A stretch of DNA of 64,000 nucleotides from Styela clava (lineage: Eukaryota): contig NC_135253.1 of assembly GCF_964204865.1 (NCBI RefSeq), positions 23,312,001-23,376,000 on the forward strand. Reading direction: 5' to 3'. The notes under the pieces are model-generated. The model did not search any database. It was given only the letters and a program-made list of their open reading frames with translations, and had not been told where the DNA came from. The translations under genes and the position numbers were made by a program. Shown here one piece after another: positions 1 to 58,980 of this stretch; within the stretch, counting starts at the first letter, position 1; each line of letters begins with the position of its first letter.

Positions 1-660
1 TGTCAACACCGCCGAGTCAGCCGCAACTCAAACAAACAAGGCAATCTTCCAGACTCAAACAGTCATCGACGATTGGAAACACCCCGTTTCATCCTACATC
101 CAAAGGCAACCCTTATGTAAAAGTGATGGTGCACAACATCCAGCCACCGGAATTAACAACATCTTCCGTCTTCTCCACTGCACCTGATGAAATATCCTCC
201 GCACCGGCTAATCTGGAATACAACAAATCAAAATCCAAAACCGAGGACTTACCTGCCAAAAATCTTGACAATTCGGATTATACTATTAAAAGAAGCCGTG
301 AAGAAACGTCATCAGACTCTTCATTTTCAACCACTTTAGAATTTAGACTTGTTGGCAAAAAGAAAAAATAGTTATAAGTTAATTCGGACCCCACAAATCA
401 AAATTCTGTAATCTGGACATTTAATTCGGCCTTTAAACATCGAGCGTAAAACAAACTGCCCAGTTGATGGCATAAAACTCAACTTGATAATACCATCCCA
501 CTTATAGCGGATGTGATGAATGGAAGACTACCTCCTCATGTGGTATATAAAATGGTGATCTCTATGGCAAAGAGAAGGGATCCATATAACTTCCGTCGGC
601 ATAGTCTGGGTATGAAGGCAATTGGGCTGGATTCCAGACTTTGTCGTTCTGATCCGTTTG

Positions 661-697
<37 letters not shown>
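1..697 (+). mobile_element. N1 ORF1-only non-autonomous non-LTR retrotransposon, 3' part (5' end outside window)
   Basis: ORF1 C-terminus and 3' UTR ending TCTGATCCGT; poly(A) 661-697 joined to the SL-gamma intron start GTAAGCTAGAGCCC at 698; matches the full copies downstream. Confidence 0.93.
3..371 (+). CDS. N1 ORF1 C-terminal fragment (partial)
   Basis: Same frame and C-terminus (...TTLEFRLVGKKKK*) as complete N1 ORF1 copies. Confidence 0.9.
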   Translation, partial: STPPSQPQLKQTRQSSRLKQSSTIGNTPFHPTSKGNPYVKVMVHNIQPPELTTSSVFSTAPDEISSAPANLEYNKSKSKTEDLPAKNLDNSDYTIKRSREETSSDSSFSTTLEFRLVGKKKK

Positions 698-701: not shown

Positions 702-1297
702 GCTAGAGCCCGAGCTATTGCTCGTTATTTTATACTGCACATTCCAGATCGAAGTGGTTCGCGCTAACTCCTTCGTGACTTCCTATTCTCGCTAGTACGA
801 GACTTCTCGCGAAGTGAACGAGATAACAACGCGACGTGATACATCCTTTGTTGTCGCCGACTGACTTCTGCTCCCTTAGATTGTTGTCTTACATACATAC
901 ATGTCTTGTTGGAATAGATTGTGCAACCGAATGGGCTACAAACCAGTGACTATCATTATTCGCTGTATAATTAAGGTAAGTTCTGGAGCCGCGGCTCGTT
1001 ATTTAATATCGCACTCTTCGGTTGGAAGAAAACGCGTTCATTTTGTCCACGTTAACCCTTTCGTGACTTGACCTGTCAAAAAACCTTTCCGTGGGACCAA
1101 CGAGTTAACCCGCGCAGGTGCACTTCGTTTGATGGTTGCCGACATCGCGGCGAGTCAGGTTTCTGCGTTACTCGCTGTGTATGTCCAGACTGCTCGTCCA
1201 AGAACTTCAAATCTTGTGAGCATAGACTGTGCAGCCGAATGAGTCTCAAAGCAATGGCTATCATTATTGCTGTTTTGATTAAGGTAAGCTAGAGCCC
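698..1297 (+). repeat. SL RNA gene array segment (gamma intron, alpha gene, beta promoter with gamma-type exon)
   Basis: Matches the 840-bp trimer seen at 7558-8397 and elsewhere. Confidence 0.92.
952..997 (+). ncRNA. SL RNA gene, variant alpha
   Basis: Exon ATCATTATTCGCTGTATAATTAAG, donor GTAAG at 976, AGTTCTGG resembling the tunicate Sm-like AGCUUUGG, hairpin GAGCCGCGGCTC; 3' end approximate. Confidence 0.8.
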
Positions 1298-1653
1298 TTG
1301 ATCAACAGCACGGAGCGTCTGGTGGTCTTTTCTGCCATTCCGCGGCTTTTGCCAGCCCGCTCCGAACTAGGTGTATTGGGAGTGGCCTCTCCCCCTTCGG
1401 GAATTTCTTAGAGGCCACCCCGGCGTTTCCGTAACGGTTTTTATATAATAAACCGTTACCGCTTTTGTTTGTTGCTCTGTTAGTTTATAAACTTCTGTTA
1501 GTTAATAGCCCCAATTTCTACTACTACCATAATATCTAGCTCGTTTTTATTATCCTTCAGTTAGTTTCTTTGTAGTAGGTTTCCTTAATAACTCTTAGTT
1601 GAATAACATCTGGGGTTCTACATTTCTTCTATAGTTTCTCCGTAAAGTTCTTG

Positions 1654-3066
1654 ATGTCTGCCAGGACACACCTGCCTCTCGGCAGTCAGAGTGTCTCTGG
1701 CAGACCGGCAACTGGACCATCTGACCCGCAGACCTCTTCTTCTTCGGCAGCCAAACCACTATTCTCAAGTGTCGCAGCGTCGATTCCGAAGGTCGCGAAC
1801 GTGAAGGGGATCGAAGTTCAACGTGGGGAGTCAATTGACGCCACAACATCGCAGGACATCCCCACTGTCGCCGCTTTCTACCAACTTTTTTCGTCGGTTG
1901 AGCAGCTTCGACCCTTCAGGTCACTTGTTGAAGGAGTGTTCCCAATTAGATCGGGAACTTGGAATATCACCTTCCAGGCGGCAGATGGGGGAAATCGTGA
2001 CAAGTTCCTATCTACGATAGGAAACGAGCTTGATACCCCATCTGGCCGTATTAATTTTTTTTTGCCGCGTGGTTTGGGCACGCGCATTAGTGTGCGGAGT
2101 ATCCCGACGGAGGCGACGATCGAGCAAATTACCACCATGCTCGACTCGCTGAAGTTCGGGAAGGTACGCCGCGTATACCGAATATACCTTAAAAATACAA
2201 AGGTATATAATGGCTACATTCAAGCCATTGTTGATGATTTTAACAGGAATAATTTTCCTGACTTTATCAACATAGCCGGTATGCGCTGTAAGACGTACCT
2301 CCCCGCGGAACTCTATGTAAAATCATGTTTAAACTGCTTCGCTACCGGGCATTTGGCCCGAGAGTGCATTAACCCCCCCTCTTGCCGCCTGTGCAAAAAA
2401 ACCGGGCATGTGCAGAGGGACTGCACCGACTTCCCCTCCATTCCATCTGGCAGGAAGTCTAGTGAAGCAGCACCACCGCAAATTAAATCTCCCGTACAAT
2501 CTGTTTCTAAAACCTTGATGGGGAAGGCGAAATACACCTTCGCCAAGATCTCATCAAGTGCTCCAGCAACGCCTGTACGGAAAGAAAAGGAAAATAATAA
2601 TTATAATAAGGAGAACTCTTCTAGTAAGACTGGTAATTTTCTCAGTCGGGTTACAGTTGATGTCCATCCTGTCCCGACCGAGATACACGATATTACCGAC
2701 TCTCTAGAGTCGGAAAATATGGGAGATAAAATTAATAGGGTTTTAAATAATGGTAGTGGTCCTGGAAAGGACTCGGCTAACCTGGAAGAAAACAGCGACG
2801 ATGATGAGAGCTCTCTGGAAGCTGACTTACTTAATATAGCCAAACTAACAGAGTGCTCGGAAGAAGAACACGTGTCTTTTCGCGAGAAGATACGCATCCA
2901 TCGTAAATCCAAGGAGCCGGGTCCGGACTGGGACTACTCCAAAATTGAAAAGCCTTCGATTCTCAGGGACGAGAAGAGGGGACGCGAGAGCTCGTCTTCG
3001 GACGCGTCATCAGCTCTCCCCCCCCGTAAATCCCGGGGTCTTTCAGAACCATCGGCCGGTGAATAA
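1654..3066 (+). CDS. A1 ORF1, Gag-like nucleic-acid-binding protein
   Basis: ATG at 1654 (track starts at TTG 1651); knuckles CLNCFATGHLAREC and CRLCKKTGHVQRDC; low-complexity C-terminus. Confidence 0.93.
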   Translation: MSARTHLPLGSQSVSGRPATGPSDPQTSSSSAAKPLFSSVAASIPKVANVKGIEVQRGESIDATTSQDIPTVAAFYQLFSSVEQLRPFRSLVEGVFPIRSGTWNITFQAADGGNRDKFLSTIGNELDTPSGRINFFLPRGLGTRISVRSIPTEATIEQITTMLDSLKFGKVRRVYRIYLKNTKVYNGYIQAIVDDFNRNNFPDFINIAGMRCKTYLPAELYVKSCLNCFATGHLARECINPPSCRLCKKTGHVQRDCTDFPSIPSGRKSSEAAPPQIKSPVQSVSKTLMGKAKYTFAKISSSAPATPVRKEKENNNYNKENSSSKTGNFLSRVTVDVHPVPTEIHDITDSLESENMGDKINRVLNNGSGPGKDSANLEENSDDDESSLEADLLNIAKLTECSEEEHVSFREKIRIHRKSKEPGPDWDYSKIEKPSILRDEKRGRESSSSDASSALPPRKSRGLSEPSAGE

Positions 3067-3222
3067 TAAACCATAGCTCCAAGTTTTCATAATCCCTCTT
3101 TTCTGTTTTTTCTATGCTGGTGGATTAACATCCACAATAACCATTTTGATTAATCGTACTATACCAACTGTGCGTAATTTATTGAGTGGTATAATATATA
3201 ATTATTACCCAAATCTCTTTTA

Positions 3223-6200
3223 ATGGATACTTTGAGTTTAGTTTCACTCAATGTTAACGGACTGAACTCAAATAGACACAGGTTAGGCCTCTGGATACGG
3301 AGACACCAACCTGGAATAATTTCCTTGCAACAAGTACACCGTTGCAAAAAAGACGAGATTGATTCCTGGGCAGCCGACCTGGGATACACCGCACACCTCA
3401 ATACCATCCACCATGAAGTCACCTCGATGAAATATTTCAGAGCTGGGACTGGAATTCTAGTTAAAAATAACATCCCCTGTACCATTCTATCGTACAAGGT
3501 TTTAATTCCATACAGGCTCGGCCGTCTGGACTTTTTTTTCAATAGTAGCATTACATGCTTAATGAATGCTTATGTTCCTTCGGTTCGGGGCTGTACTCAG
3601 ACTGACTTCATGGTGAGGATGTGCGGTGTGTTTCAGACCCTAGACCCCCTGGACCCACTTATAATTTTAGGGGATTTTAATGCCGTCTTGGATGAGCGTG
3701 ATGTTCTAATTAAACAGAACTTCGGGCTCACCAAGGCGGAAAAAATACTTGGATCCTCTTTAAAATCTCTTGGTATGATTGATATCTTCCGCCAAAAACA
3801 TCCGGCTGGTCAGGTATATACCTGCAAAGTAGATACACAGGCGCGTAGGATTGATCGAATTTATATCTCCGATCACTACGCGGCCTGTGTGAAAGATATC
3901 TATCATATAATAAATACAGCTTCAGATCACACCCTTGCTCCAGCCCTAGTCTTGAAATCCACCTTGAAAAAGGTGGATGGAAAGGCTAGACCGAAATCTT
4001 CAACGAAGATTAGATGGGGCAAGGGTGCCTGGAGAAATAACACCTCTTTATATAGTGATCCAGAATATCGGGAAATAATAATTAATAGTTATAAAAATCT
4101 TGTTCACCGCATGGAAGAATTTTCATATATTCAAGATTGGTGGGATTTCACTAAAAATAGTATTAAAAAGAGTAGCATTGCTTTTTCCATCTATAAAGCA
4201 GATTTACATAGAAAGAAAAAGGACCATCTGGACTTTTTAATTAGAGATGGACAACATCATGCGGAAATATTAAATTTAAGAAAGGAACTTCTTCTTCACG
4301 AGTCAAAAAAATTAGAATTTATCAAATTAAAAGCACGTATTCAAGGGATGGAAGAGGGTGAAGAGCCCACCAAAATCTTCTATCAGAAACTTAAAAAAAG
4401 AGATCAGGACACCATAATTACACAACTTAAGGATAAATTCGGACAAATTAAAGAAAAACCGGAGGAAATAATTAGTATAGTCCATGACTTTTATAAGGAT
4501 CTCTGGGGAACCACATCAGATATTGATGTGGCAACTCAGGATGAACTTATAAAAGTCATGGAAACCACTCAGTTATCGAGTGATGATAACGGCCTAATTG
4601 AAAATGGAACTACTGAGGAAGAAGTCTTTTCTATAATAAAAAATATGGACAATGGCAAGTCGCCGGGTCTCGACGGCTTGTCTAAGGAATTTTACTTAGC
4701 GTTCTGGACCCTAATCAAAAAAGAACTCATAATTATAATTAATAACGTTTTATTTTCTGGCATACTGCCAGCATCATCAAAAGTAGCAAGAGTTAAACTA
4801 ATTTATAAGAAATCCGACGCTTTAGATTTGAAAAATTGGCGTCCGATTTCAAATCTAAACGTCGATTATAAAATCATCACAAAACTTCTTTCTAGGCGCC
4901 TTTTAAATTCCTTCTCTGGCATAATTAGTCCGACCCAGAAAAGTACCATTCTGGGTCGGTCTATCTTTGATGTGCATTATAATATCACAAGTGCACTCAA
5001 TTATGCCAAATACACTAATAGTCCGTATTTCATTGTTTCCATTGATAATCTCAAGGCGTTTGACATGGTTAATCATAATTATCTTTTGAGACTTCTCGAA
5101 AGCATTAACCTATGTCCAAGCGCCTTGAGATTGATAAAATCCATTTACACCGGCATTACCAGCATCATTGAGGTAAATGGGGCCTTCACCAAAAAAATTA
5201 ACATACTGAGAGGCATCCGTCAAGGGTGTCCTCTTAGTATGTTACTCTACACCATCAATGTGGAGCCCCTCAGCCGATGTGTAATCAATAATAAATTAAT
5301 AAAAGGTATTCGTATTGGTAATTTCACCCACAAATTGGATCAGTATGCGGACGACGCAACTTTTGTTGTGTCGGACGCATACTCGATTGATGCTATTTTT
5401 AATAACTTGGAGCTCTTTCGTCTAGCCACAGGGCAGCGGATCAACAGAGAAAAAACCTCCATCCTCTGTACTAATGATAGGGCGAAGGAGATTCTATCTT
5501 TTTTCCCCTATCATAGATACATAAAGGACCATATTAAAATCCTTGGAATCTACTTCGGTGAAAACCAAATTAATATAACTTGGAGCGAGAAGGTCTCCAA
5601 GATCGAACAAATAATTAATTTTAATCGGTCTAGATCCCTATCCTGGTACGGCAAGATCTTGGTTATCAATTCCTTGATCTTGTCTCAGGTTATTTTTAGC
5701 GCGAGGTCGGTCCCCATACCACCTCCTGTCATAAAATATATTGATCGCAAGATCTTCTCTTACCTCTGGATCTCTGAGCCTATGGAAGTATTGGGCCGGC
5801 GGATCCTCCGGAACGGTAAATCTATAGGTGGAATGGGTGTTCCCTGTCTTAACACCAAGATAGTTGCTTGCCAGGCTGAACGTTTCCAACAACTGGCCTC
5901 TCTTGTTAATCCCACACAATTGTGGCATAGAGAGGCCCAGTTCAGCCTTGGCAGTAAAATAATCCAGGTTAATCCTGGTTTGTTTAGCAACTCGATACCC
6001 CATTCCATCACCGTTCCGGAATCATGGCTGAAAGCCTTCAACACATTTCGTGTTTTGGGGGCTAAAGGCCATGATTGGGATTCTGCCGGTCTAGCTTCCA
6101 TATATAGGACCCTCATGAGTGAAAGAGAAGAAACTCCTCCATCTAATATTAACTGGGAGCGTGTCCACCTTTTGGACCGCTCCCTCAGGATTCATTTTAG

Positions 6201-6726
6201 TAACCCCGAAAGGGAAATTTCTTTCAGGACCGTCCGAAACGGGTTCTTATTTGGACAACGTCGGGCGGGAACCGGTTTTAAATACCATAAATTAAATAAC
6301 CGGCTGCTTAAACTTACTTGTAAGTTTTGTCGCCATGGAGTGGATAACACTCAACATCTCTTTTTAGAATGCAAGCCCTGCCTAAGCATGGCATCCGAAT
6401 TATCCAGAATCTTAAATAAAATCTGTTCGAGTCCTGTAAGTGTTTGTATGGATGATATATTCTACAACACTTACAGTGATAACCATACTCTCGCGGTCTT
6501 GAAAATTTTTCAAATTTTCAAGGTTTTTGTGATTAAAACAAAAAAGATTCTGGATAAGGAAGACCGCTATGCGAAGGAGGGCGACGCGAATAATATAATA
6601 AAATCAGTTATTACTGATTTTAACGAACATCTTCTGGCACGTGAGTTAAAGTATGGGGACGTGACCATCTATGATCTCGTTCCTAATTGGAAAGAGATTC
6701 TTTCTGGTTACGATTCCCATACATAA
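3223..6726 (+). CDS. A1 ORF2, APE endonuclease + reverse transcriptase + C-terminal Zn finger
   Basis: SLNVNG, GDFN, RIDRIY, SDH (APE); KSPGLDG, NWRPI, GIRQGCPLS, YADD (RT); CKFC..H..C; L1/Tx1-type architecture. Confidence 0.96.
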   Translation: MDTLSLVSLNVNGLNSNRHRLGLWIRRHQPGIISLQQVHRCKKDEIDSWAADLGYTAHLNTIHHEVTSMKYFRAGTGILVKNNIPCTILSYKVLIPYRLGRLDFFFNSSITCLMNAYVPSVRGCTQTDFMVRMCGVFQTLDPLDPLIILGDFNAVLDERDVLIKQNFGLTKAEKILGSSLKSLGMIDIFRQKHPAGQVYTCKVDTQARRIDRIYISDHYAACVKDIYHIINTASDHTLAPALVLKSTLKKVDGKARPKSSTKIRWGKGAWRNNTSLYSDPEYREIIINSYKNLVHRMEEFSYIQDWWDFTKNSIKKSSIAFSIYKADLHRKKKDHLDFLIRDGQHHAEILNLRKELLLHESKKLEFIKLKARIQGMEEGEEPTKIFYQKLKKRDQDTIITQLKDKFGQIKEKPEEIISIVHDFYKDLWGTTSDIDVATQDELIKVMETTQLSSDDNGLIENGTTEEEVFSIIKNMDNGKSPGLDGLSKEFYLAFWTLIKKELIIIINNVLFSGILPASSKVARVKLIYKKSDALDLKNWRPISNLNVDYKIITKLLSRRLLNSFSGIISPTQKSTILGRSIFDVHYNITSALNYAKYTNSPYFIVSIDNLKAFDMVNHNYLLRLLESINLCPSALRLIKSIYTGITSIIEVNGAFTKKINILRGIRQGCPLSMLLYTINVEPLSRCVINNKLIKGIRIGNFTHKLDQYADDATFVVSDAYSIDAIFNNLELFRLATGQRINREKTSILCTNDRAKEILSFFPYHRYIKDHIKILGIYFGENQINITWSEKVSKIEQIINFNRSRSLSWYGKILVINSLILSQVIFSARSVPIPPPVIKYIDRKIFSYLWISEPMEVLGRRILRNGKSIGGMGVPCLNTKIVACQAERFQQLASLVNPTQLWHREAQFSLGSKIIQVNPGLFSNSIPHSITVPESWLKAFNTFRVLGAKGHDWDSAGLASIYRTLMSEREETPPSNINWERVHLLDRSLRIHFSNPEREISFRTVRNGFLFGQRRAGTGFKYHKLNNRLLKLTCKFCRHGVDNTQHLFLECKPCLSMASELSRILNKICSSPVSVCMDDIFYNTYSDNHTLAVLKIFQIFKVFVIKTKKILDKEDRYAKEGDANNIIKSVITDFNEHLLARELKYGDVTIYDLVPNWKEILSGYDSHT

Positions 6727-7495
6727 GTCTCGCGTGCCAATTATTATATTATCTAAATAATAGTATTGGGTGTCATAACAACCTGTCCTCATCTCGATTG
6801 CTACCTAGTAACTCTATTACTTTGATAATAAGATCACCAGTTGAAAATAACTAGGTGTAATATAGTTACCATTAACATTAGGCAAACAAATAGTTAATAA
6901 AACGCCACGTACACCTATCTACCTGGCAACCTTTATTATTATTTAATTTATACTCTTATTTATTTTTGTTATCTTCTTCTCTCTTTTATAGCCCTTTCCT
7001 CTCCATCATTTTCTTTCTAACTCTTTTCTTCGTCAATCTGACTCTTTTTCTTCCATTTCTTACCTGCCTGGCCAAGACGGAATACTCGCCACTAGAGGGT
7101 TCAATGAGTGTGCATCAGGGTGCATTTCTCCGAACCCTCCCATGTGGCGGGAAATGTTTCGTCGAGGCCAGGCGTTCTGTTAATCTTTACCTTTTATTTT
7201 TCAGAAAAAGAAAGACCATCTAAAAGCCTCCCCTGCAACAAGTAAGTATAAAAAAGTAAGTATCGGTGGGTTGAGGCCTACTTAAAAAAAAAAAAAAAAA
7301 AAAGTAAGCTAGCGCCCGAGCTGCGGTTCGGTATTTTTTATTGCATTTTCCATACTCCAATTCGTAGAATATTTCAATTCGTTCGTCCTAACCCTCTCTT
7401 ATCTTTTGGCTTTGCGCGAGACACACCGCGGGCGGGCCTCGTTTGTTGTCGCCGACTTCTGCTTCTCGTTTTAGTATTCATTCGTACGCTTTGGC

Positions 7496-7721: not shown

Positions 7722-7773
7722 TGACTTCTGCTCCCTTAGATTGTTGTCTTACATACATACATGTCTTGTTGGA

Positions 7774-7795: not shown

Positions 7796-7811
7796 CTACA
7801 AACCAGTGACT

Positions 7812-7857: not shown

Positions 7858-8081
7858 GTTATTTAATATCGCACTCTTCGGTTGGAAGAAAACGCGTTCA
7901 TTTTGTCCACGTTAACCCTTTCGTGACTTGACCTGTCAAAAAACCTTTCCGTGGGACCAACGAGTTAACCCGCGCAGGTGCACTTCGTTTGATGGTTGCC
8001 GACATCGCGGCGAGTCAGGTTTCTGCGTTACTCGCTGTGTATGTCCAGACTGCTCGTCCAAGAACTTCAAATCTTGTGAGC

Positions 8082-8103
8082 ATAGACTGTGCAGCCGAAT
8101 GAG
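8082..8103 (+). promoter_or_regulatory. Putative PSE-like element, SL-beta (example copy)
   Basis: ATAGACTGTGCAGCCGAATGAG at -38..-17. Confidence 0.65.
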
Positions 8104-8119
8104 TCTCAAAGCAATGGCT

Positions 8120-8171
8120 ATCATTATTCGCTATTTGATTAAGGTAAGCTAGCGCCCGAGCTGCGGTTCGG
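8120..8171 (+). ncRNA. SL RNA gene, variant beta
   Basis: Exon ATCATTATTCGCTATTTGATTAAG, whose 3' part closely resembles the Ciona leader ATTCTATTTGAATAAG; donor 8144; hairpin CCGAGC..GTTCGG. Confidence 0.82.
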
Positions 8172-8458
8172 TATTTTTTATTGCATTTTCCATACTCCAA
8201 TTCGTAGAATATTTCAATTCGTTCGTCCTAACCCTCTCTTATCTTTTGGCTTTGCGCGAGACACACCGCGGGCGGGCCTCGTTTGTTGTCGCCGACTTCT
8301 GCTTCTCGTTTTAGTATTCATTCGTACGCTTTGGCATAGATCGTGCAACCGAATGGGCTTCAAAACATTGGAAATCATTATTGCTGTTTTGATTAAGGCA
8401 ACCCCTCACCGGGTTAGGCCCTCGACAGCAACGAAGCAAGAAGAAAAGGAAGAAGAAG

Positions 8459-9937
8459 ATGAACTACGCCGAAGCCGCCTCAACAACGCCTACACCTACA
8501 AGCGAAGAAACGACTGCACCGACTACACGACCTCGCACTCTGTTCCTGACAACCACCAAAGACCTGGACTTCCCTCGACTGTTCGACATCCTGAAGACCG
8601 ACTCAGCGTCCCGCAACTATGTCGACAACATCACGGGACTGTTCGAGGGAAGGAAAGGTCAGTGGATTTGTACTTTTGCCGCCACCGACGAACCCAACTC
8701 TAGCTGTCGCGAGCAATTTATGCACGACACAAAGGGTGAAATAAGAGTTTCAGACGGTACTATTACGGTATCGCTGCCAACCGAAGCACCTGTCCGAATA
8801 TCCATTCGAGGGATACCGGGTGAAACTTCCTACAGCAAGGCCGTGTCGACAATCGAACGACTGCAGTGCGGAAAAGTCCGGAATGCCACCAGAAACTGGT
8901 ACAGAGGTACGTCCATTTATAACGGATACACTTCCTTTTTTATTGAAAATTTTAAAAAGGACAGGTTACCAGATTACTTGGTCATCGACGGGAAAAGCTG
9001 CAAAACTTACCTGCCCAGGGAATTATACGTGCCAACCTGTGGTAGGTGTTTGAAATCCGGTCACAACTTCACCGAATGCGAAAGCGAACCAGTCTGTCGC
9101 TACTGCAAACAACTGGGCCATCTTTTAAAAGAGTGTCCATCCAGAAGGAAAGAATTTCCATCAATTTCCGGATCTACATGGACCTTTCCAAGACGTCGAA
9201 AACAGCAATCAGAAAACCCACCTTTTTCGGAACAACCAAGTAACCAAAATGCTTCACAACCTGCAACAGTATCGGGTTTACAAAATGCTTCACAACCTGG
9301 ACTAATTTCGGATTTACAAATTGCTACACAACCTGGACTAATTTCGGATTTACAAAACAACCAAAATGCCGTACAACCTACAAAACCGGATATACCAAAC
9401 GATCAAATGGATTTACAACCTGAATCGACCACTCTTACTCCGCATGACAACAGGATTGATCCAACCTCGAATGTGATCGAATTTTCCTCTTCAACCGAAT
9501 CAACCGACTTGAAAGAAATCAGCAACTGGTCGGAGTGCGAGGATGTGGGAAGCGTTATAAGCCCTCTGTCAACACCGCCGAGTCAGCCGCAACTCAAACA
9601 AACAAGGCAATCTTCCAGACTCAAACAGTCATCGACGATTGGAAACACCCCGTTTCATCCTACATCCAAAGGCAACCCTTATGTAAAAGTGATGGTGCAC
9701 AACATCCAGCCACCGGACTTAACAACATCTTCCGTCTTCTCCACTGCACCAGATGAAATATCCTCCGCACCGGCTAATCTGGAATACAACAAATCAAAAT
9801 CCAAAACCGTGGACTTACCTGCCAAAAATCTTGACAATTCGGATTATACTATTAAAAGAAGCCGTGAAGAAACGTCATCAGACTCGTCATTTTCAACCAC
9901 TTTAGAATTTAGACTTGTTGGCAAAAAGAAAAAATAG
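8459..9937 (+). CDS. N1 ORF1 (492 aa), zinc-knuckle protein homologous to B1/B2 ORF1
   Basis: CGRCLKSGHNFTEC, CRYCKQLGHLLKEC; shares RPRTLFL, STIGNTPFH and NWSECED with B1. Confidence 0.93.
   Translation: MNYAEAASTTPTPTSEETTAPTTRPRTLFLTTTKDLDFPRLFDILKTDSASRNYVDNITGLFEGRKGQWICTFAATDEPNSSCREQFMHDTKGEIRVSDGTITVSLPTEAPVRISIRGIPGETSYSKAVSTIERLQCGKVRNATRNWYRGTSIYNGYTSFFIENFKKDRLPDYLVIDGKSCKTYLPRELYVPTCGRCLKSGHNFTECESEPVCRYCKQLGHLLKECPSRRKEFPSISGSTWTFPRRRKQQSENPPFSEQPSNQNASQPATVSGLQNASQPGLISDLQIATQPGLISDLQNNQNAVQPTKPDIPNDQMDLQPESTTLTPHDNRIDPTSNVIEFSSSTESTDLKEISNWSECEDVGSVISPLSTPPSQPQLKQTRQSSRLKQSSTIGNTPFHPTSKGNPYVKVMVHNIQPPDLTTSSVFSTAPDEISSAPANLEYNKSKSKTVDLPAKNLDNSDYTIKRSREETSSDSSFSTTLEFRLVGKKKK
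9245..9360 (+). repeat. 36-bp coding minisatellite (QNASQPGLISDL-like)
   Basis: Three units here; copy number differs among N1 copies. Confidence 0.85.
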
Positions 9938-10221
9938 TTATAAGTTAATTCGGACCCCACAAATCAAAATTCTGTAATCTGGACATTTAATTCGGCCTTT
10001 AAACATCGAGCGTAAAACAAACTGCCCAGTTGATGGCATAAAACTCAACTTGATAATACCATCCTACTTATAGCGGGTGTGATGAATGGAAGACTACCTC
10101 TTCATGTGGTATATAAAATGGTGATCTCTATGGCAAAGAGAAGGGATCCATATAACTTCCTTCGGCATAGTCTGGGTATGAAGGCAATTGGGCTGGATTC
10201 CAGACTTTGTCGTTCTGATCC

Positions 10222-10259
<38 letters not shown>

Positions 10260-10510
10260 AGCTAGAGCCCGAGCTATTGCTCGTAATTTTATACTGCACA
10301 TTCCAGATCGAAGTGGTTCGCGCTAACTCCTTCGTGACTTCTTATTCTCGCTAGTACGAGACTTCTCGCGAAGTGAACGAGATAACAACGCGACGTGATA
10401 CATCCTTTGTTGTCGCCGACTGACTTCTGCTCCCTTAGATTGTTGTCTTACATACATACATGTCTTGTTGGAATAGATTGTGCAACCGAATGGGCTACAA
10501 ACCAGTGACT

Positions 10511-19786: not shown

Positions 19787-19790
<4 letters not shown>

Positions 19791-20015
19791 GCTTGTCTCG
19801 GCGCACTTACCTTCAACAGCAGACAGCTGGAGTCGTTTGGGCCTCAAAACCCCGCTCCAGTCAGTCTAGTTTGGGGGAGGCCCTCCCGCCGCGTTATCGC
19901 ATAGGGCCTCTTCGTCAGCTTATAACAGATATTTGAGAGTCATTTTGAGTGTTTTCGGACTATAAATCAGGAAAGGAAAGCTTCTTTATTAGCACATTTC
20001 GGACTATATAGAAGC

Positions 20016-21476
20016 ATGGCATACTCTGCAGCTGCGTCCACAATACCTCGGAGTACAATCAATACACCAACCACTACAAGACCAAGGACCTTATTTCTAA
20101 AATCAGAGCAAGAATTGGATTTTCCCAGACTGATGGACATATTAAAGAAGAACACTACCACTCAGAAATATTGCGAGCATATCAGGGCATTATACGAAGA
20201 AAGGAAAGGGATGTGGATCTTATCTTTTGCAGCTTTGGAAGACCCGGAGTCAAGTGTGCGAGGTGATTTCCTGCATGAAACAGGCGGAATCATTCGTGCG
20301 GAGAACATCACGATAGAGGTCTCGCTGCCAACCAAAGCACCGATCCGAATTTCGATCAGAAGCATACCGCCCGAGACGAGTTTTGCAAAAGCCTCAGCCA
20401 TAATACACAATCTGGGCTGCGGAAAGATAAAGAGTGCCAGCAGGAACTATCATCGAGGCACGGATGTATATAACGGCTACACTTCCTTTCTCATGGAAGA
20501 ATTTAAGAAGGATCGGTTGCCCGACTTTGTCATCATGGAGGGCATTCGATGCAAAACATTTTTACCGAGAGAATTATATATCCCTACTTGTGGCCGATGC
20601 CTGCAGACCGGTCACGTTTTCACCAATTGTGAGAATGAGCCGGTGTGTAGGCACTGTAAGAAACCTGGACACATTCGAAAGCACTGCGATAAAATAGAAA
20701 AGGACTTCCCGAACCTACAAGGTGCGGCAACATGGGCGATCCCAAAACATATGAGAAGAGCTCAACAAGAACGAGCGTTTCAGCATCTCGTTTCGGACGC
20801 AACCCAAAGCGAGACAAACACGCCAACAAGCAACAACATGGCAGAAAAATCGGCCAATACACCAAAAGACACAATACAAAACGCAAACAAATCAGATACT
20901 GAAAATTTGGAAGACTCTCTTAACACAATAACACAAAAAGAAACAACCATACAACTCGCTGACGACCGAAACAGGACAAATGTGGACACACAGGGATTTT
21001 CATCCTCGGGCACTGACTCAATTGAAATTAATAATTGGTCGGAATGTGAAGACACGGGCAACCCAATCAGTCCGATAATAACTCCACCACAAATTCCGAA
21101 ATCAAAGCCGAAAACATCCACGCGTCTAAAGCCCACATCAACAATTGGAAACACGCCCTTTCATGCGCCCCCTAGGGGAAATGAGTACGTGAAGGTCCTT
21201 GTCCAAAATTTTGAATCTAGAGAGACAACACTCTCCTCAGTGTTCAGCGACTCGCCACTGGAGACTACATCAGCGCCGGCAGATCTGGGAAACAACATGC
21301 CCCTGCCAAGTAGGCTAAATTTGGACATATCTAGAAGCGACATGGAAAATGATGACCATAACAATAAGAGAAATAGAGAAGACACATCGTCATCAGGTTC
21401 ATCGTTATCAGCTACTCGCACCATAAAAGAGAAATCTACCGGGAAAAAGAAAAAGGGATCGACAACAAAACTGTGA
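20016..21476 (+). CDS. B1 ORF1, zinc-knuckle Gag-like protein
   Basis: CGRCLQTGHVFTNC, CRHCKKPGHIRKHC. Confidence 0.93.
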   Translation: MAYSAAASTIPRSTINTPTTTRPRTLFLKSEQELDFPRLMDILKKNTTTQKYCEHIRALYEERKGMWILSFAALEDPESSVRGDFLHETGGIIRAENITIEVSLPTKAPIRISIRSIPPETSFAKASAIIHNLGCGKIKSASRNYHRGTDVYNGYTSFLMEEFKKDRLPDFVIMEGIRCKTFLPRELYIPTCGRCLQTGHVFTNCENEPVCRHCKKPGHIRKHCDKIEKDFPNLQGAATWAIPKHMRRAQQERAFQHLVSDATQSETNTPTSNNMAEKSANTPKDTIQNANKSDTENLEDSLNTITQKETTIQLADDRNRTNVDTQGFSSSGTDSIEINNWSECEDTGNPISPIITPPQIPKSKPKTSTRLKPTSTIGNTPFHAPPRGNEYVKVLVQNFESRETTLSSVFSDSPLETTSAPADLGNNMPLPSRLNLDISRSDMENDDHNNKRNREDTSSSGSSLSATRTIKEKSTGKKKKGSTTKL

Positions 21477-21739
21477 GTTATAAAAATCAGTTATAACAAA
21501 AAGTAAGAAACATCTGGAAAAAATACTCTGATAAAATCTATAAATAGTGTTCTATATTTATTTACCACAAAGCTTAGGCTACAGCATACTGTACACCTCT
21601 CCCAAAACACGTGCCATGTTTGAACCGAAGCTGGTATGGTGCTATGCCAATCATTCAGGGCATGCCTGTCCGTTGGTATTAAACGTTGGTATCAACGTAC
21701 CATATAACTACATACTCCTTCTTACTTACCTGATCCTAT

Positions 21740-24700
21740 ATGCATGAAATGGCGGGAATGAAGATAATATCCTTGAATTCAAACGGTGTCCAACACCGAT
21801 TGAATGATCTAAGAAATTATATCGGTCACGAGAGGCCAAATGTCCTGTGCGTGCAAGAGGTGCACAAGATAGACAAATTATTGGTCACACAATGGGCGGA
21901 AGCACTAGGATATAACATATTTATGAATACGCTGGATAAATTGGACAAATACCATACGACTTTCAAGCAAGGAACTCTGATTATGATTAAATCTGAAAAC
22001 ACTAATTTGCCAACCACCTACGCCATACATATCCAACACCGCTTGGATAGCGTAGAAATTAATATCGACCGCCAAACAATAAAAATTTTCAACGTATATG
22101 CCCCAGCCCAAAACGGACCTGAAAAAACGAAATTTTGTGAAAAACTGGTAGTAACGTTAAAGAATTACATAGACACATATGACATAATAATGGTAGGCGA
22201 TTTTAACTTTGTGCTTGAGCCAATTGATGTTCTAATTCCCAGAAATTTTAAACTTCGGCCGCCGGAAAAAATTCTAAAAAAATTCATCCAGGAAAACAAC
22301 ATTGTCGACACATATAGAAGAAAATACCCCCAAAAACAAATTTTTACGCACCTTACCGGATCGCAGGGAAGACGTATTGACAACATCTATAACTCGAAAA
22401 ACTTGGATCATATGGTCTCAGAAATATCCCATACAATAAACACAGTGTCAGATCACCTGTTGTGCCCCCAGATAGTACTCAAACAAGCTCAAAAAATTCG
22501 ATGGGGAAAAAGCGTGTGGCGAAATAACGTTCTGTTATATGACGATCCAACCTACGTTAGAGTGATTAAAAACACCTATGCATCCGCTCTAAACGAAATA
22601 CAAAACTTTGAATCGCTACAATTATGGTGGGATTATGTAAAGAACAGAATCAAAAAAGTGACAATGGCTTACTCAAAAAACGTTGCAAATAATAAACGAA
22701 ACAATTTGGCTCAATTACGGAAAAACCTGGATAAATTGATAAATGAAGGGAAAAGGGAGAATACTTTAAAAATAGAAAACCTAAAATCGCAACTAAAAAC
22801 ACTGTCTGAAGAACGAAACAAATTGGATATCTTGATGGCAAATATTCAAACCCTTGAGGAGAACGAGAAGCCAACAAAAACTTTTTTCGCCCGAATAAAA
22901 AAAAGAGCCAAACAAACTACCATAACTGAACTGAGGGCACCAAACAATAGGGCAACCACCAAAGAGGAAGAAATCATAAAGCTGGTAGAAAACTTCTACG
23001 CAAACTTATGGGGTGAGGAACATCAAACATCCGAGTACTACCAACAATATTATCTCTCACTCATGGGAACAACTCAAATTTCAAAACAAGATAACGACGG
23101 CCTAGAACAATACGTGACTAGCGCTGAGATTCTGCATACAATCAAGCAGATGTTCAACAACCGATCGCCGGGGATGGACGGACTAGGAAAAGAGTTTTAC
23201 GTTACTTTCTGGGACACCATACAAATTCAATTTACGCAACTTATAAACAATATTTTCTCTTTCGGCCCCCTACCCAAATCTGCCTCAATTGCCAAAGTAA
23301 AACTGTTGTATAAAAAGAACGACCAATTAAACCTCAAAAACTGGCGCCCAATCACAACTTTGAATACAGACTATAAGATTATATCAAAAATTATCGTAAA
23401 TCGTCTGGAACCCATTATGGACCCAATTATAAGCCCCTCTCAAAAATGTTCAATCAAATCAAGAAATATGGTCGACATTCATTATAACATAGATGCTATC
23501 TTCCGACACTGTCAGAATAATAACATCCCTGGCTCTCTGGTAATGATCGATAACTTAAAAGCCTTCGATAATGTAAGTCACAGCTTCGTATTTAATGTCT
23601 TGCAACACATAGGTTTGGGATGCAAGACATTAAACATCATAAAAAGCATGTATACGGACATATATAGCCGTATAGATGTGAATGGTCGTCTAACCAACCC
23701 AATAACTATACGGCGCGGCATACGACAGGGATGCCCGTTAAGTATGATGTTATATTGCTTAACGGTCGAACCACTCGCAAGATCAATCCAGACAAACTCG
23801 CAAATAAAAGGAATAAAACTCGGCGCATATGAGCATAAAATAGACCAATATGCTGACGACATTACTTTTGCGGTTAGGGATCAAATATCCATATCAAAAA
23901 TCTTTGAAGAACTAGAAAATTTTAAACAAGCAGCCGGACAACAAATCAATAAAGAAAAAACGGAAATATTATGTATCACCAAAATAGCGCTCAACTCGAT
24001 ATCAAAATCTCCATACCACCAATATATAAAACCGGACTGCAAAATACTTGGCATCCATTTTGGCTTTAAAACATTGGAAAAAATGTGGGACGAGATAATT
24101 GGATTACTAACCCGGACCCTAAATTCATTGAAACCAAGAAACCTGACTTGGTATGGTAAACTAACTGCAATCAACTCCTTAATAATGTCGATCATCACAT
24201 TCCATGCGCGGGTCAAGACCATCTCCTCAAGCAATATCAAAACAATCGAGAGCGTACTCCATAAATTCATATGGTACCCCGCAAAAATAGAGGCAATAAA
24301 GAGAAAACATCTCCAACTCTCAGTGGCGAGTGGGGGTATCGGAATGATTGATGTTAAGTCAAAAGTGGAAGCCTGTAAGATCGAACGAATAAAAGCCTTT
24401 GTGAGAGGTGAAAACCTCAATCAATTTTGGCATATTGAAGGCCTATACTCACTTGGGTCAAAAATTAAAGAAATAAATCCAAGCCTTTACAGCAACTTGA
24501 TGCCGCACAGAAACACAACCCCCACAACATGGAGAGAAATGCTGGACCTCTACCGTAAAATAGATCTCACACGGGATGTCTGGGAAACAGCAAGACACAA
24601 ACACCTCTATCAGGAGCTTAAGAGCAAGGCACCTGAACAATACCAACAGATACCAACCATAAACTGGGAAGAAGTCCAGCTCTTTAGTAATACCTTGAGA

Positions 24701-25228
24701 AACAAGTTCACAAATGCGGAACGATTACTATCCTACCGCATAGTCCGTGAAGGATACATCTTCGGCGACCGCATGCGGGGAATGTCCCTAAGATTCGACC
24801 AAACCGGAGTGCTAAAGATATTGAACTGTAAATTCTGCAAAACCCCTTCCGACAACACGAAGCATCTTATCCAACACTGCAATAAAACTGACTATTATAT
24901 TGGAAAAACTGTAAACTTTATTAGCGACATATTACGTACCCCCATAAAAATCAACAGAGAGCAAATATTTTACAACAGTTATGGTGGCCCACACCAGATA
25001 GCAGTAACTAAATGCTTCGTCCTTTTAAAGAAGAATATAATTGGAACAAAAATCAAACTAGACATACAAAACAAATACCTGGCCCCAACCGATGATAAAA
25101 TAATTCAAAAAACAATAGACAAATTTGCAGAATTTCTAATTACAATGGAATACAAACATACGGACATACAGTTTCTTGGCTTTCCAGCAAATTGGAAAGC
25201 AATCTTAAGTGGGTATTTAAATATGTGA
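21740..25228 (+). CDS. B1 ORF2, APE + RT + Zn finger
   Basis: CVQE, GDFN, RRID, SDH, NWRPI, GIRQGCPLS, YADD, CKFC..H..C; true start may be the ATG at 21749. Confidence 0.96.
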   Translation: MHEMAGMKIISLNSNGVQHRLNDLRNYIGHERPNVLCVQEVHKIDKLLVTQWAEALGYNIFMNTLDKLDKYHTTFKQGTLIMIKSENTNLPTTYAIHIQHRLDSVEINIDRQTIKIFNVYAPAQNGPEKTKFCEKLVVTLKNYIDTYDIIMVGDFNFVLEPIDVLIPRNFKLRPPEKILKKFIQENNIVDTYRRKYPQKQIFTHLTGSQGRRIDNIYNSKNLDHMVSEISHTINTVSDHLLCPQIVLKQAQKIRWGKSVWRNNVLLYDDPTYVRVIKNTYASALNEIQNFESLQLWWDYVKNRIKKVTMAYSKNVANNKRNNLAQLRKNLDKLINEGKRENTLKIENLKSQLKTLSEERNKLDILMANIQTLEENEKPTKTFFARIKKRAKQTTITELRAPNNRATTKEEEIIKLVENFYANLWGEEHQTSEYYQQYYLSLMGTTQISKQDNDGLEQYVTSAEILHTIKQMFNNRSPGMDGLGKEFYVTFWDTIQIQFTQLINNIFSFGPLPKSASIAKVKLLYKKNDQLNLKNWRPITTLNTDYKIISKIIVNRLEPIMDPIISPSQKCSIKSRNMVDIHYNIDAIFRHCQNNNIPGSLVMIDNLKAFDNVSHSFVFNVLQHIGLGCKTLNIIKSMYTDIYSRIDVNGRLTNPITIRRGIRQGCPLSMMLYCLTVEPLARSIQTNSQIKGIKLGAYEHKIDQYADDITFAVRDQISISKIFEELENFKQAAGQQINKEKTEILCITKIALNSISKSPYHQYIKPDCKILGIHFGFKTLEKMWDEIIGLLTRTLNSLKPRNLTWYGKLTAINSLIMSIITFHARVKTISSSNIKTIESVLHKFIWYPAKIEAIKRKHLQLSVASGGIGMIDVKSKVEACKIERIKAFVRGENLNQFWHIEGLYSLGSKIKEINPSLYSNLMPHRNTTPTTWREMLDLYRKIDLTRDVWETARHKHLYQELKSKAPEQYQQIPTINWEEVQLFSNTLRNKFTNAERLLSYRIVREGYIFGDRMRGMSLRFDQTGVLKILNCKFCKTPSDNTKHLIQHCNKTDYYIGKTVNFISDILRTPIKINREQIFYNSYGGPHQIAVTKCFVLLKKNIIGTKIKLDIQNKYLAPTDDKIIQKTIDKFAEFLITMEYKHTDIQFLGFPANWKAILSGYLNM

Positions 25229-25327
25229 CACGATGCTTGAAAAGAACTTTACCACCCAAAGAGGTCGCCCTACCTACATTCACCATAAAAGGGAGCTTAA
25301 ACCTGGTAATACCATCCTCAAATTTTC

Positions 25328-25665
25328 GCGGAAATGATGAATCGGAAGCTTCACGGTGGATGTCATGCTGGATACGTGTTACACGCCTCGCAGTATGTAC
25401 GGAAGCCGGGGGTGGCGGAAGTTGAGCTGTGTTAAACACGGCATTGACGGAAGCCCTGGGCAGACGTCCTGCTATTTGGCACATAGCATGTTACTGATGC
25501 TCGGGGCAGAAGTCTTTGCCTTGCAATACATAGCCGATACGGAAGCCGCCTTAATGTATGACCGCTGCTTACGCAGTGGCATGCTTATGTAGCGTAATAC
25601 CGATATGACTCGGATATGACGTGTCTTTGAGACACTGATCCGAGATTGGAAAAACTCTGATCCGT
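25328..25665 (+). other. Box C/D (kink-turn)-closed structured 3' UTR domain of B1
   Basis: GCGGA-A-ATGATGA (25328-25340) ... CTGA-TCCGT (25657-25665); internal K-turn hairpin 25609-25644. Confidence 0.7.
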
Positions 25666-25666
25666 A

Positions 25667-25711
<45 letters not shown>

Positions 25712-26545: not shown

Positions 26546-28423
26546 GTAACCCCTCACCGGGTTAGGCCCTCGACAGCAACGAAGCAAGAAGAAAAGGAGG
26601 AAGAAGATGAACTACGCCGAAGCCGCCTCAACAACGCCTACACCTACAAGCGAAGAAACGACTGCACCGACTACACGACCTCGCACTCTGTTCCTGACAA
26701 CCACCAAAGACCTGGACTTCCCTCGACTGTTCGACATCCTGAAGACCGACTCAGCGTCCCGCAACTATGTCGACAACATCACGGGACTGTTCGAGGGAAG
26801 AAAAGGTCAGTGGATTTGTACTTTTGCCGCCACCGACGAACCCAACTCTAGCTGTCGCGAGCAATTTATGCACGACACAAAGGGTGAAATAAGAGTTTCA
26901 GACGGTACTATTACGGTTTCGCTGCCTACCGAAGCACCAATCCGAATATCCATTCGGGGGATACCGGGTGAAACTTCCTACAACAAGGCCGTGTCGACAA
27001 TCGAACGACTGCAGTGCGGAAAAGTCCGGAATGCCACCAGAAACTGGTACAGAGGTACGTCCATTTATAACGGATACACTTCCTTTTTTATTGAAAATTT
27101 TAAAAAGGACAGGTTACCAGATTACTTGGTCATTGACGGGAAAAGCTGCAAAACTTACCTGCCCAGGGAATTATATGTGCCAACCTGTGGTAGGTGTTTG
27201 AAATCCGGTCACAACTTCACCGAATGCGAAAGCGAACCAGTCTGTCGCTACTGCAAACAACCGGGCCATCTTTTAAAAGAGTGTCCATCCAGAAGGAAAG
27301 AATTTCCATCAATTTCCGGCTCTACATGGACCCTTCCACGACGTAGAAAACAGCTATCAGAAAACCCACCTCATTTGGAACAACCAAGTAATCAAAATGC
27401 TTCACAACCTGCAACAGTATCGGATTTACAAAATGCCTCACAACCTGGACTAATTTCGGATTTACAAAGCGCTTCACAACCTGGACTAAATTCGGATTTA
27501 CAAAATGCTACACAACCTGGACAGGTTTCGGAATTACAAGTCAACCAAAATGCCGTACAACCTACACTACAAACTACAAAACCGGATATACCAGTCGATC
27601 AAATGGATTTACAACCTGAATCGACCATTCTTGGACATACTCCGCATGACAACAGGATTGATCCAACCTCGGATGTAATCGAATTTTCTTCCTCCACCGA
27701 TTCAACCGACTTAAAAGAAATTAGTAATTGGTCGGAGTGCGAGGATGTGGGAAGCGTTATAAGCCCTCTGTTAACACCGCCGAGTCAGCCGCAACTCAAA
27801 CAAACAAGGCAATCGTCAAGACTAAAACAATCATCGACGATTGGAAACACCCCTTTTCATCCTCCATCGAAAGGCAACCCTTATGTAAGAGTGATGGTGC
27901 ACAACATCCAGCCACCGGACTTAACAACATCTTCCGTTTTTTCTACTACACCTGATGAAATATCTTCCGCACCGGCTAATCTAGAATACAACCAATCAAA
28001 ATCCAAAACCGTGGACTTACCTGAACCAAATCTCGACAATTCGGATTATGCTAATAAAAGAAGCCGTGAAGAAACGTCATCAGACTCGTCATTTTCGACC
28101 ACTTTGGAATTTAGACTTGTTGGCAAAAAGAAAAAATAGTGGTAAGTTAATTCGGACCCCACAAATCAAAATTCTGTAACCTGGACATTTAATTCGGCCT
28201 TTAAACATCGACCGTAAAACAAACTGCCCAGTTGATGGCATAAAACTCAACTTGATAATACCATCCCACTTATAGCGGATGTGATGAATGGAAGACTACC
28301 CCTTCATGTGGTATATAAAATGGTGATCTCTATGGCAAAGAGAAGGGATCCATATAACTTCCGTCGGCATAGTCTGGGTATGAAGGCAATTGGGCTGGAT
28401 TCCAGACTTTGTCGTTCTGATCC

Positions 28424-28495
<72 letters not shown>
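26546..28495 (+). mobile_element. N1 ORF1-only element, full length (long allele)
   Basis: Between gamma exon and gamma intron; poly(A) of about 70 nt. Confidence 0.93.
26607..28139 (+). CDS. N1 ORF1 (510 aa)
   Basis: Intact; nearly identical to the 13833 copy. Confidence 0.93.
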   Translation: MNYAEAASTTPTPTSEETTAPTTRPRTLFLTTTKDLDFPRLFDILKTDSASRNYVDNITGLFEGRKGQWICTFAATDEPNSSCREQFMHDTKGEIRVSDGTITVSLPTEAPIRISIRGIPGETSYNKAVSTIERLQCGKVRNATRNWYRGTSIYNGYTSFFIENFKKDRLPDYLVIDGKSCKTYLPRELYVPTCGRCLKSGHNFTECESEPVCRYCKQPGHLLKECPSRRKEFPSISGSTWTLPRRRKQLSENPPHLEQPSNQNASQPATVSDLQNASQPGLISDLQSASQPGLNSDLQNATQPGQVSELQVNQNAVQPTLQTTKPDIPVDQMDLQPESTILGHTPHDNRIDPTSDVIEFSSSTDSTDLKEISNWSECEDVGSVISPLLTPPSQPQLKQTRQSSRLKQSSTIGNTPFHPPSKGNPYVRVMVHNIQPPDLTTSSVFSTTPDEISSAPANLEYNQSKSKTVDLPEPNLDNSDYANKRSREETSSDSSFSTTLEFRLVGKKKK

Positions 28496-58601: not shown

Positions 58602-58980
58602 TTGATTAAGGTAAGCTAGAGCCCTTGATCAACAGCACGGAGCGTCTGGTGGTCTTTTCTGCCATTCCGTGGCTTTTGCCAGCCCGCTCCGAACTAGGTG
58701 TATTGGGAGTGGCCTCTCCCCCTTCGGGAATTTCTTAGAGGCCACCCCGGCGTTTCCGTAACGGTTTTTATATAATAAACCGTTACCGCTTTTGTTTGTT
58801 GCTCTGTTAGTTTATAAACTTCTGTTAGTTAATAGCCCCAATTTCTACTACTACCATAATATCTAGCTCGTTTTTATTATCCTTCAGTTAGTTTCTTTGT
58901 AGTAGGTTTCCTTAATAACTCTTAGTTGAATAACATCTGGGGTTCTACATTTCTTCTATAGTTTCTCCGTAAAGTTCTTG

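Follow-up and report, generated by a model that had tools for sequence, protein, structure and literature searches.

N1, an ORF1-only element with seven copies in the window (the whole 64,000-nt stretch of Styela clava DNA that was analysed), is probably a non-autonomous LINE of the L1/Tx1 group that is still active or was so until recently. It appears to derive from lineage B through a single loss of ORF2 that left ORF1 and the 3´ tail in place, and to be mobilised by a cycle of the following kind. The host SL promoter would transcribe the SL exon together with N1. Because the splice donor is gone from the sequence, the RNA would be unable to donate its leader and would resemble a mature trans-spliced mRNA, presumably open to translation. 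ORF1p would coat its own RNA, so that copies with a good ORF1, which is seen to be under selection, would leave more descendants. ORF2p of an autonomous neighbour (B by the tail, A by the nick site) would bind the 3´ tail, nick the type-c SL gene at the exon/intron border where the copies are found, and prime on the poly(A). The exon at the RNA 5´ end would anneal to the target exon, giving a precise full-length 5´ junction, and array recombination, which is detected, would afterwards mix the copies.

By sequence, the window is a tandem array of three SL-like RNA gene types, filled with the L1-group LINEs A1, A2, B1 and B2. The unit repeated between the long ORFs is 840 bp long and holds three related small-RNA genes (types a, b and c). 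In each gene type, a common upstream element precedes a 24-nt exon that ends in TTAAG and is followed by a GTAAG donor; a T-rich Sm-like stretch is also present. The short exon, the GT donor, the T-rich Sm-like site, the tandem arrangement and the likeness to a known SL are the features expected of SL RNA genes. In a by-eye comparison with Table 1 of PMC1488885, 15 of the 16 letters of the Ciona SL recur in the 3´ part of the type-b exon, interrupted by a 2-nt insert; Ciona itself carries ~670 clustered SL genes, according to the available part of PMC6836712. We call the exons SL-like, that is, putative trans-spliced leaders by likeness. An Rfam scan of 7000–36000 returned six chance-level matches and no SL or snoRNA family, and a literature search with the three exon motifs (a, b and c) found no paper. 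All nine type-b genes are intact; of ten type-c exons counted, N1 sits on six, A1 on one, and three are intact. Seven flanking units, compared over their 840 bp, vary in only 11 columns. The LINE copies that matter here are the following.

1..697, + strand: N1 copy, cut by the window edge
1284..7303, + strand: A1 (one of five copies), autonomous; candidate helper by its common 3´ insertion point
8398..10257, + strand: N1 copy, the reference, ORF1 of 492 aa
11097..12931, + strand: N1 copy, ORF1 of 480 aa
13772..15688, + strand: N1 copy, ORF1 of 510 aa, box D altered to CTAA
17299..19786, + strand: N2, a second ORF1-only element with an ORF1 of 455 aa; lineage A, single copy
19787..25709, + strand: B1, ORF1 and ORF2 (APE endonuclease, RT), autonomous; candidate helper by its common tail
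26546..28495, + strand: N1 copy, ORF1 of 510 aa
28774..34512, + strand: B2, ORF1 and ORF2, autonomous; candidate helper by its common tail
48319..50131, + strand: N1 copy, ORF1 of 480 aa, directly upstream of an A1
57002..58602, + strand: N1 copy, ORF1 of 480 aa, 3´ end lost; joined to the last 10–12 nt of an SL exon and an A1

The original prediction spoke of seven N1 copies of about 1.8–1.9 kb. Seven are present, but only five are whole (1788–1880 bp without the tail): the window edge clips the first, and the last, of 1601 bp, lacks both its 3´ end and its tail. N1 was also said to be the most abundant element, which is correct by count (seven N1, five A1 with one of these clipped by the window edge, and one each of A2, B1, B2 and N2) but not by bases (11.7 kb of N1, 29.6 kb of A). 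The claims that all complete ORF1s are open and change length in frame agree with the sequence: the six complete ORF1s encode 492, 480, 510, 510, 480 and 480 aa, and the gaps measure 36, 72, 12 and 6 nt. The 36- and 72-nt gaps are units of a 36-bp repeat and hence in frame by construction. A 1-nt indel among the copies is confined to the 3´ UTR. The layout of the reference copy and its target gene is as follows.

8343..8354, + strand: promoter-like element that each of the three SL gene types carries, ~30 nt ahead of the exon
8374..8397, + strand: type-c SL-like exon of 24 nt, with which the N1 transcript probably starts
8398..8458, + strand: N1 5´ UTR, with no AUG ahead of ORF1
8459..9937, + strand: N1 ORF1, 492 aa
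9245..9357, + strand: 36-bp in-frame tandem repeat, two to four units by copy
10052..10064, + strand: 3´ UTR block common to N1, B1 and B2, part of a 45–65 nt match running through the C box
10074..10085, + strand: 5´ arm of the terminal stem and box C-like RTGATGA
10215..10223, + strand: box D-like CTGA and 3´ arm of the terminal stem, the last templated bases of the element
10224..10257, + strand: poly(A) tail of 34 nt, with no AATAAA/ATTAAA in the preceding 120 nt
10258..10300, + strand: rest of the interrupted type-c SL gene, intron part; the first G is absent at this copy

N1 contains a single ORF above 150 aa, which is homologous to the ORF1 of autonomous LINEs. The encoded protein has two RRM-fold domains (~aa 27–105 and 111–188), two CX2CX4HX4C knuckles (aa 194–226) and a long, low-complexity C-terminal half. 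A structure model of the first 239 residues (mean pLDDT 74.6, from an alignment of six sequences) likewise predicts two RRM-type domains followed by two CCHC knuckles. The best structural match to this model is TDP-43 RRM1 (Z 9.8, rmsd 2.6 over 75 residues), and the tandem-RRM protein UP1 is matched at E 9e-7. The closest named relatives are Styela clava proteins with 37–46% identity. One N1-like protein, P0002, has a shifted start, with foreign sequence ahead of the last 12 nt of the exon; it may reflect an insertion elsewhere, a faulty gene model or an error of sequencing.

The autonomous neighbours belong to the L1 group. PF03372 (APE) and PF00078 (RT) are found in ORF2 of A1 and B1, with APE at the ORF2 N-terminus, and the solved structure nearest to B1 ORF2 is human L1 ORF2p (E 5e-60, against 2e-25 for R2, in a comparison that held no Tx1 reference). 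In a FastTree phylogeny of ORF2, A and B form one group (SH 100) among 34 other matches. The Tx1 clade is their likely place. The ORF1s of A1, A2, B1 and B2 are all open.

N1 shows no remnant of ORF2, as had been claimed. In two N1 copies and N2, the best tblastn match has E 0.12 and the best HMM match E > 1; the search used four ORF2 proteins and their profile, and a control of 42 codons was found by both (tblastn 3e-24 to 3e-4; HMM 4e-16). The remaining N1 copies are collinear with the two searched. The further claim, that N1 ORF1 is well diverged from B1 and B2, is borne out by 48–49% identity over aligned columns with saturated dS (B1 and B2 share 47% with each other). This distance rules out N1 as a recent deletion of B1 or B2. 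Identity to the A ORF1ps is 25–26%, and the tree places N1 ORF1 within the B clade (support 100/100) as sister to P0004 (97/94). Since ORF1 lies in the B clade and the tail shares a block with B1 and B2 and not with A, N1 is assigned to lineage B. The 3´ UTR of N1 has no likeness to ORF1–ORF2 spacers or A-type 3´ UTRs (p 0.45–0.84); lacking a likeness to the spacers, the deletion point cannot be mapped. The original prediction made N1 a long-lived family; the ORF1 distance would date the ORF2 loss only with a known parent, and the N1 copies differ mutually by only 0.2–5.8%, so that a long life without ORF2 is conjectural. N2 stands beside N1 as a product of the other lineage: its ORF1 is 51–55% identical to A ORF1s and lies in the A clade, its 3´ UTR is of the A type, no ORF2 trace is present, and its 5´ junction is atypical. 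N2 thus suggests that ORF2 was lost in both lineages A and B.

N1 ORF1 is under purifying selection, in line with the original prediction. Pairwise dN/dS of ORF1, which had been proposed as a check, lies between 0.06 and 0.44 among the six copies. Across these copies, with gapped codons excluded, 59 synonymous and 46 non-synonymous variants were counted (346 and 1094 sites), which gives a pN/pS of 0.25 (p 2e-12). It falls to 0.17 over the N-terminal 233 codons, which encode the folded part, and is 0.28 in the disordered part and 0.24 for singletons; a transition bias of up to kappa 16 raises the overall value to 0.39 (p 1e-6). Because the N1 copies are mosaics, with 311 of 2211 site pairs failing the four-gamete test, their variants cannot be treated as independent and these p-values are optimistic. 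The variants listed from other runs include 29 in ORF1, split 18 to 11, with 26 also found in the window, and add little to the case for selection. We conclude from the codon pattern that selection acts on the ORF1 protein; the same pN/pS would be expected from action in cis, as originally predicted, from a trans-helper role such as that of HeT-A, or from selection by the host.

A role mainly in trans would follow the division of labour between HeT-A and TART: N1 ORF1p would help or steer the A and B ribonucleoproteins on which N1 depends, with selection acting on the local element community. We regard this as distinctly unlikely. It predicts the same pN/pS, and it has precedents in HeT-A ORF1p, which relocalises TART ORF1p (available part of PMC4700185), and in the multimerisation with helper proteins that Kojima proposes for ORF1-present elements (available part of PMC5786205). 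It also fits the relative depth of N1, which exceeds A1 2.5–3.3 fold in two runs and 91 fold in a third, X1, guessed to be RNA. However, A1, A2, B1 and B2 all have open ORF1s of their own, N1 ORF1p is only 25–26% (A) or 48–49% (B) identical to these, and if the benefit were purely in trans, N1 copies with a broken ORF1 could spread as well, whereas none of the six is broken.

Variation outside the codons is harder to place. Per-site variation is 0.044–0.049 in the N1 UTRs, 0.042 at non-synonymous sites and 0.17 at synonymous sites. The low UTR value may reflect strong UTR constraint, homogenisation, or import of ORF1 diversity from an unseen autonomous family. The last of these belongs to a reading in which a near-identical autonomous parent ("B3") sits elsewhere, and N1 is a young deletion product that receives its ORF1 haplotypes and selection signature by recombination. 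UTR diversity at about a quarter of the synonymous level and the mosaic copies speak for it, as do further B-lineage ORF1s among named Styela clava proteins (P0004, P0005, P0006 and P0101).

Read data bear on this parent. Reads of four of 19 runs were placed on N1 and A1; X15 (35 reads) was not used. N1 depth is 2.5x that of A1 in X16 and 3.3x in X9, and 0.04–0.11x that of the SL unit; in X1 it reaches 91x A1 and 1.5x the SL unit, which would mean strong N1 expression if our guess that X1 is RNA holds. In X9, one continuous contig covers 48642 to 49934, including the ORF1 stop, and accounts for the full local depth of 17.5, and a contig of X1 spans 49790–50066 at a depth of 40.6 (31–45 in ORF1). 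X16 shows a dip at the end of ORF1, where the bin with the stop lies a third below ORF1 (13.9 vs 20.8), as the hidden parent would predict. The contigs listed are the basis of this evidence, and contigs drop rare variants; a common near-identical ORF2-bearing parent is unlikely, and a rare one is compatible with the reads. Against a hidden parent, no sequence with an ORF1 identity to N1 of 49% to 92% was found among the protein relatives searched, and no N1-like ORF1 is fused to a longer protein, although the latter test is weak. All N1 copies moreover have one common 3´ UTR. Metagenome scans in a collection poor in animal DNA gave 124 pattern matches with the ORF1 alignment, none confirmed, and no match with the N1 tail motif. 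We consider a B3 parent very improbable; the preferred derivation of N1 is a single ORF2 loss in lineage B.

N1 is site-specific, as the original prediction held. All six visible 5´ ends follow the type-c promoter and exon without a gap, and all six tails are followed by the type-c intron. The target of N1 is, on its junctions, the SL splice donor, which the insertion destroys: the 5´ UTR has GCAAC in place of the donor GTAAG (GTAAC in two of six copies). The original prediction named neither this target nor any signals of a candidate helper. The first AUG lies 85–88 nt from the exon start. We take the 8343..8354 element to be an snRNA-type proximal element. A, B1 and B2 retain a donor and are able to fold back on it, and 8424–8431 of the N1 5´ UTR is able to pair with the SL exon. 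ACAGC, the complement of the exon core, occurs in the first 50 nt of all four lineages and in none of three native introns, with shuffle frequencies of 0.11, 0.07, 0.25 and 0.01 across the four lineages for a motif picked post hoc. Taken singly, exon pairing is significant only for A (p about 0.01) and B2 (p 0.002), depending on the test; for the N1 5´ end alone it is not (p 0.09–0.16). By eye, no GG follows the exon-pairing strand of the N1 5´ end, and an HDV-like ribozyme was rejected there for that reason.

Irregular junctions indicate where the template RNA begins. The A1 at 1284 combines a type-b promoter, a type-c exon and a type-b intron. The A1 at 58611 begins with an exon fragment inside a truncated N1. 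In X1, a contig end carries poly(A) and 10 nt of intron directly ahead of exon position 4, where the N1 5´ contig starts (as read from contig ends), and this poly(A)/intron/exon junction is absent from the window. Together, these three cases suggest a template RNA that starts in the SL exon, and the junctions suggest transcription of N1 from the SL promoter.

The tails indicate how the copies spread. They differ between copies, as claimed: all six are distinct in junction letters or length (A17–A70), and they are long, nearly pure poly(A). Distinct near-pure tails, together with an N1 divergence that contrasts with the uniform flanks, make separate insertions more likely than duplication by itself, though homogenised flanks could give a similar picture. 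In the opposing account, N1 is immobile or rarely mobile, unequal crossing-over in the SL array has spread it, and host selection keeps ORF1, domesticated as L1TD1 is or serving as a repressor of A and B. Recombination among the N1 copies is indeed detected as mosaics, two copies differ at only 1 of 465 sites, and high expression is possible from X1. Array turnover leaves unexplained the six different poly(A) tails, the X1 junction missing from the window, flanks far more uniform than N1 and the conserved helper-type tail. We give it little credence, and favour retrotransposition of N1 into the donor, with recombination afterwards.

The 3´ end points to two different helpers. The N1 3´ UTR shares the 45–65 nt block with B1 and B2 (p 0.003, the floor of 300 shuffles) and the terminal CTGATCCGT, and shares nothing with A. 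The 3´ junction of N1 is A-like, being at the border in five of six copies and one base on in the sixth, whereas both B1 and B2 insert 5 nt downstream of the border. With a B-like tail and an A-like nick site, no element of the window fits as N1 helper on both counts; the candidates are A ORF2p or an unseen member of lineage B. This mismatch stands against the preferred explanation, as do the X16 dip, the low UTR variation, the non-independent variants and the non-significant N1 exon pairing.

The tail also carries a terminal stem that encloses a box C and a box D in snoRNA geometry, ~150 nt apart in N1 and 335 nt apart in B. This bracket is found in five of six N1 ends (one has CTAA) and in B1 and B2, and is absent from A1, A2 and N2. 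It arises in 4 and 5 of 20000 shuffles for a motif defined after being seen. Rfam gave a sub-threshold C/D match on the N1 tail (E 1.4, 15.7 bits vs 54) and no C/D family match on the B1 tail. Shuffled sequences fold as well as the N1 3´ region does (z -0.01), and the B1/B2 consensus fold has 3 double changes of 103 from only two sequences. No guide pairing of the C/D-like tail was found to the SL unit, the only target compared (p 0.24–0.75), and no poly(A) signal occurs in the last 120 nt of any N1 or B copy. We hypothesise a snoRNP-like 3´ end for N1 and B. In its widest form, the hypothesis would have N1 draw on host RNA signals at both ends: the SL promoter would supply a ready-made "trans-spliced" mRNA without a donor, a box C/D kink-turn RNP would define and protect the 3´ end of N1 and lineage B in place of a poly(A) signal, and N1 would have switched helper (B tail, A nick site). 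We offer this full scheme as a speculation, and a rather unlikely one. A literature search found no LINE with a 3´ end made by snoRNP proteins. The likeness to box C/D snoRNAs lies in the terminal stem and in C and D boxes of canonical geometry; unlike these RNAs, the N1 and B ends reach no Rfam family, are part of a polyadenylated retroelement and have no guide target found in the SL unit.

Mammalian L1 ORF1p consists of a coiled coil, an RRM and a CTD. ORF1-present non-autonomous LINEs are a named class, comprising HeT-A, HAL1 and Ag-Sponge in the available part of PMC5786205, and the two precedents invoked at the outset, HAL1 and HeT-A, are confirmed as such in the parts seen of PMC5786205, PMC5753468 and PMC4700185. 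Judged on its sequence features, namely coding for ORF1p only, no RT or endonuclease and a lineage-common tail that ends in poly(A), N1 belongs to this class, and we treat it as an independent origin and not as HAL1 or HeT-A by descent. HAL1, like N1, is an ORF1p-only non-autonomous derivative in the L1 group; HAL1 has more than one origin (PMC5753468 and PMC5786205, in part), and N1 and N2 come from two lineages. N1 differs from HAL1 in being sequence-specific and apparently young and intact, in its RRM-RRM-CCHC ORF1p and in its seemingly host, snRNA-type promoter.

HeT-A resembles N1 in being ORF1-only, in occupying one kind of site and in outnumbering its autonomous partners, on whose RT it depends (PMC4700185, in part). 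Unlike N1, it belongs to the Jockey clade, is added to chromosome ends without an endonuclease, has its promoter in its own 3´ UTR and serves the host; N1 would instead rely on APE to nick an RNA gene internally, and it is not known to benefit its host. We know of no target specificity for Ag-Sponge, which differs from N1 in belonging to the CR1 clade. It is otherwise, like N1, an ORF1-present bipartite non-autonomous LINE, from Anopheles (PMC5786205, in part).

For A and B, the nearest parallels are Tx1-clade LINEs (Keno in U2 genes, Kibi, Koshi and Tx1L), which share APE and RT, two ORFs and a multicopy RNA gene target (PMC4494074 and PMC4640811, in part). SL genes are not among the Tx1 targets named in the available parts of these two papers, which mention no ORF1-only derivative. 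NeSL of nematodes, like A, B and N1, is a non-LTR element in spliced-leader genes (PMC4640811, in part). Elements of the NeSL/CRE type have a restriction-like endonuclease and belong to early-branching clades, whereas A and B have APE at the ORF2 N-terminus, which rules them out as elements of that type. SLACS, CZAR and CRE of trypanosomatids are likewise non-LTR elements in spliced-leader genes. Because A and B carry an APE domain, SL targeting here has an origin separate from that of NeSL/CRE-type elements.

R2 is made as a Pol I co-transcript and released by a ribozyme. The proposed co-transcription of N1 with its target gene is R2-like, except that its upstream part would be a 24-nt capped leader that needs no removal. 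For R2 in 28S rDNA, co-transcription with the target gene is said to strengthen target-specific integration (PMC4494074, in part). A literature search found no SL-targeted ORF1-only LINE or SL-targeted APE element in tunicates; Repbase, Dfam and subscription journals lay outside its scope and may hold an earlier entry. The kind of element is known; its novelty here lies in a target at the SL donor, a likely co-transcript from the SL promoter, a C/D-like tail and intact helpers close by.

ORF1-only LINEs may retain their protein for a need in cis, for help in trans or for use by the host; the available part of PMC5786205 offers only multimerisation with the helper as a suggestion. A young, intact N1 beside four intact candidate helpers at one defined target makes the choice between cis and trans, and the choice of helper, directly testable. 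The array further shows that SL-gene targeting has arisen among APE-type elements, and that two lineages at a single locus have each given rise to an ORF1-only derivative. A functional C/D bracket would represent a new route of 3´-end formation for a retroelement made from an snRNA-type promoter.

The fixed a-b-c trimer of the spliced-leader (SL)-like RNA genes holds three SL exon variants (7534–8397 and repeats). For Ciona, the published account gives one main SL. Some of the LINEs inserted in this array, which are either ORF1-only (N1 and N2) or autonomous (A1 and A2; B1 and B2), form head-to-tail stacks; the donor sequence retained at the 5´ ends of the A and B elements recreates the target.

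Stacked elements
19787: head-to-tail stack N2-B1
41401: head-to-tail stack A1-A2
50132: head-to-tail stack N1-A1

The A1-A2 stack (35069–35346, 47479) is preceded by a type-a promoter and exon and followed by a type-c intron; therefore, part of the SL unit is either missing or exchanged at this position. In the A1 copy with flanks at 1225–1297 and 7304–7330, a type-c exon is located between a type-b promoter and a type-b intron, apparently through copying of the exon from the RNA of the element. At 58590–58625, an N1 copy whose 3´ end is deleted is fused via a few common bases to an SL exon fragment, which is the start of an A1 copy. In P0002, an N1-like protein record, the start is shifted and only the exon's final 12 nt follow a stretch of foreign sequence; this record is perhaps an N1-like copy outside the array.

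17299–19786: N2, second ORF1-only element, lineage A

N2 starts 193 nt inside a type-b intron/spacer, and approximately 60 bp of the target is absent at its insertion. Its 3´ region comprises 878 nt, and approximately 520 nt of it can be aligned with the 3´ UTR of lineage A. The final 100 nt of the A-lineage 3´ UTRs contain several motifs that resemble 5´ splice sites (GTAAGT, GTGAGT) and are possible U1 sites; these were observed by eye, without a control.

5´ splice-site-like motifs at A-lineage 3´ UTR ends (by eye)
7230–7283
19650–19745
47350–47413

One A1 ORF2 (37288–40764) is nine codons shorter near the C-terminus and is still open.

The 3´ UTRs of B1 (25297–25667) and B2 (34100–34472) exhibit 89.6% identity over 374 nt, whereas their ORF2 proteins share only 55% identity and dS is saturated. 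This likeness despite ORF2 divergence points either to strong constraint on the RNA or to tails that were exchanged recently.
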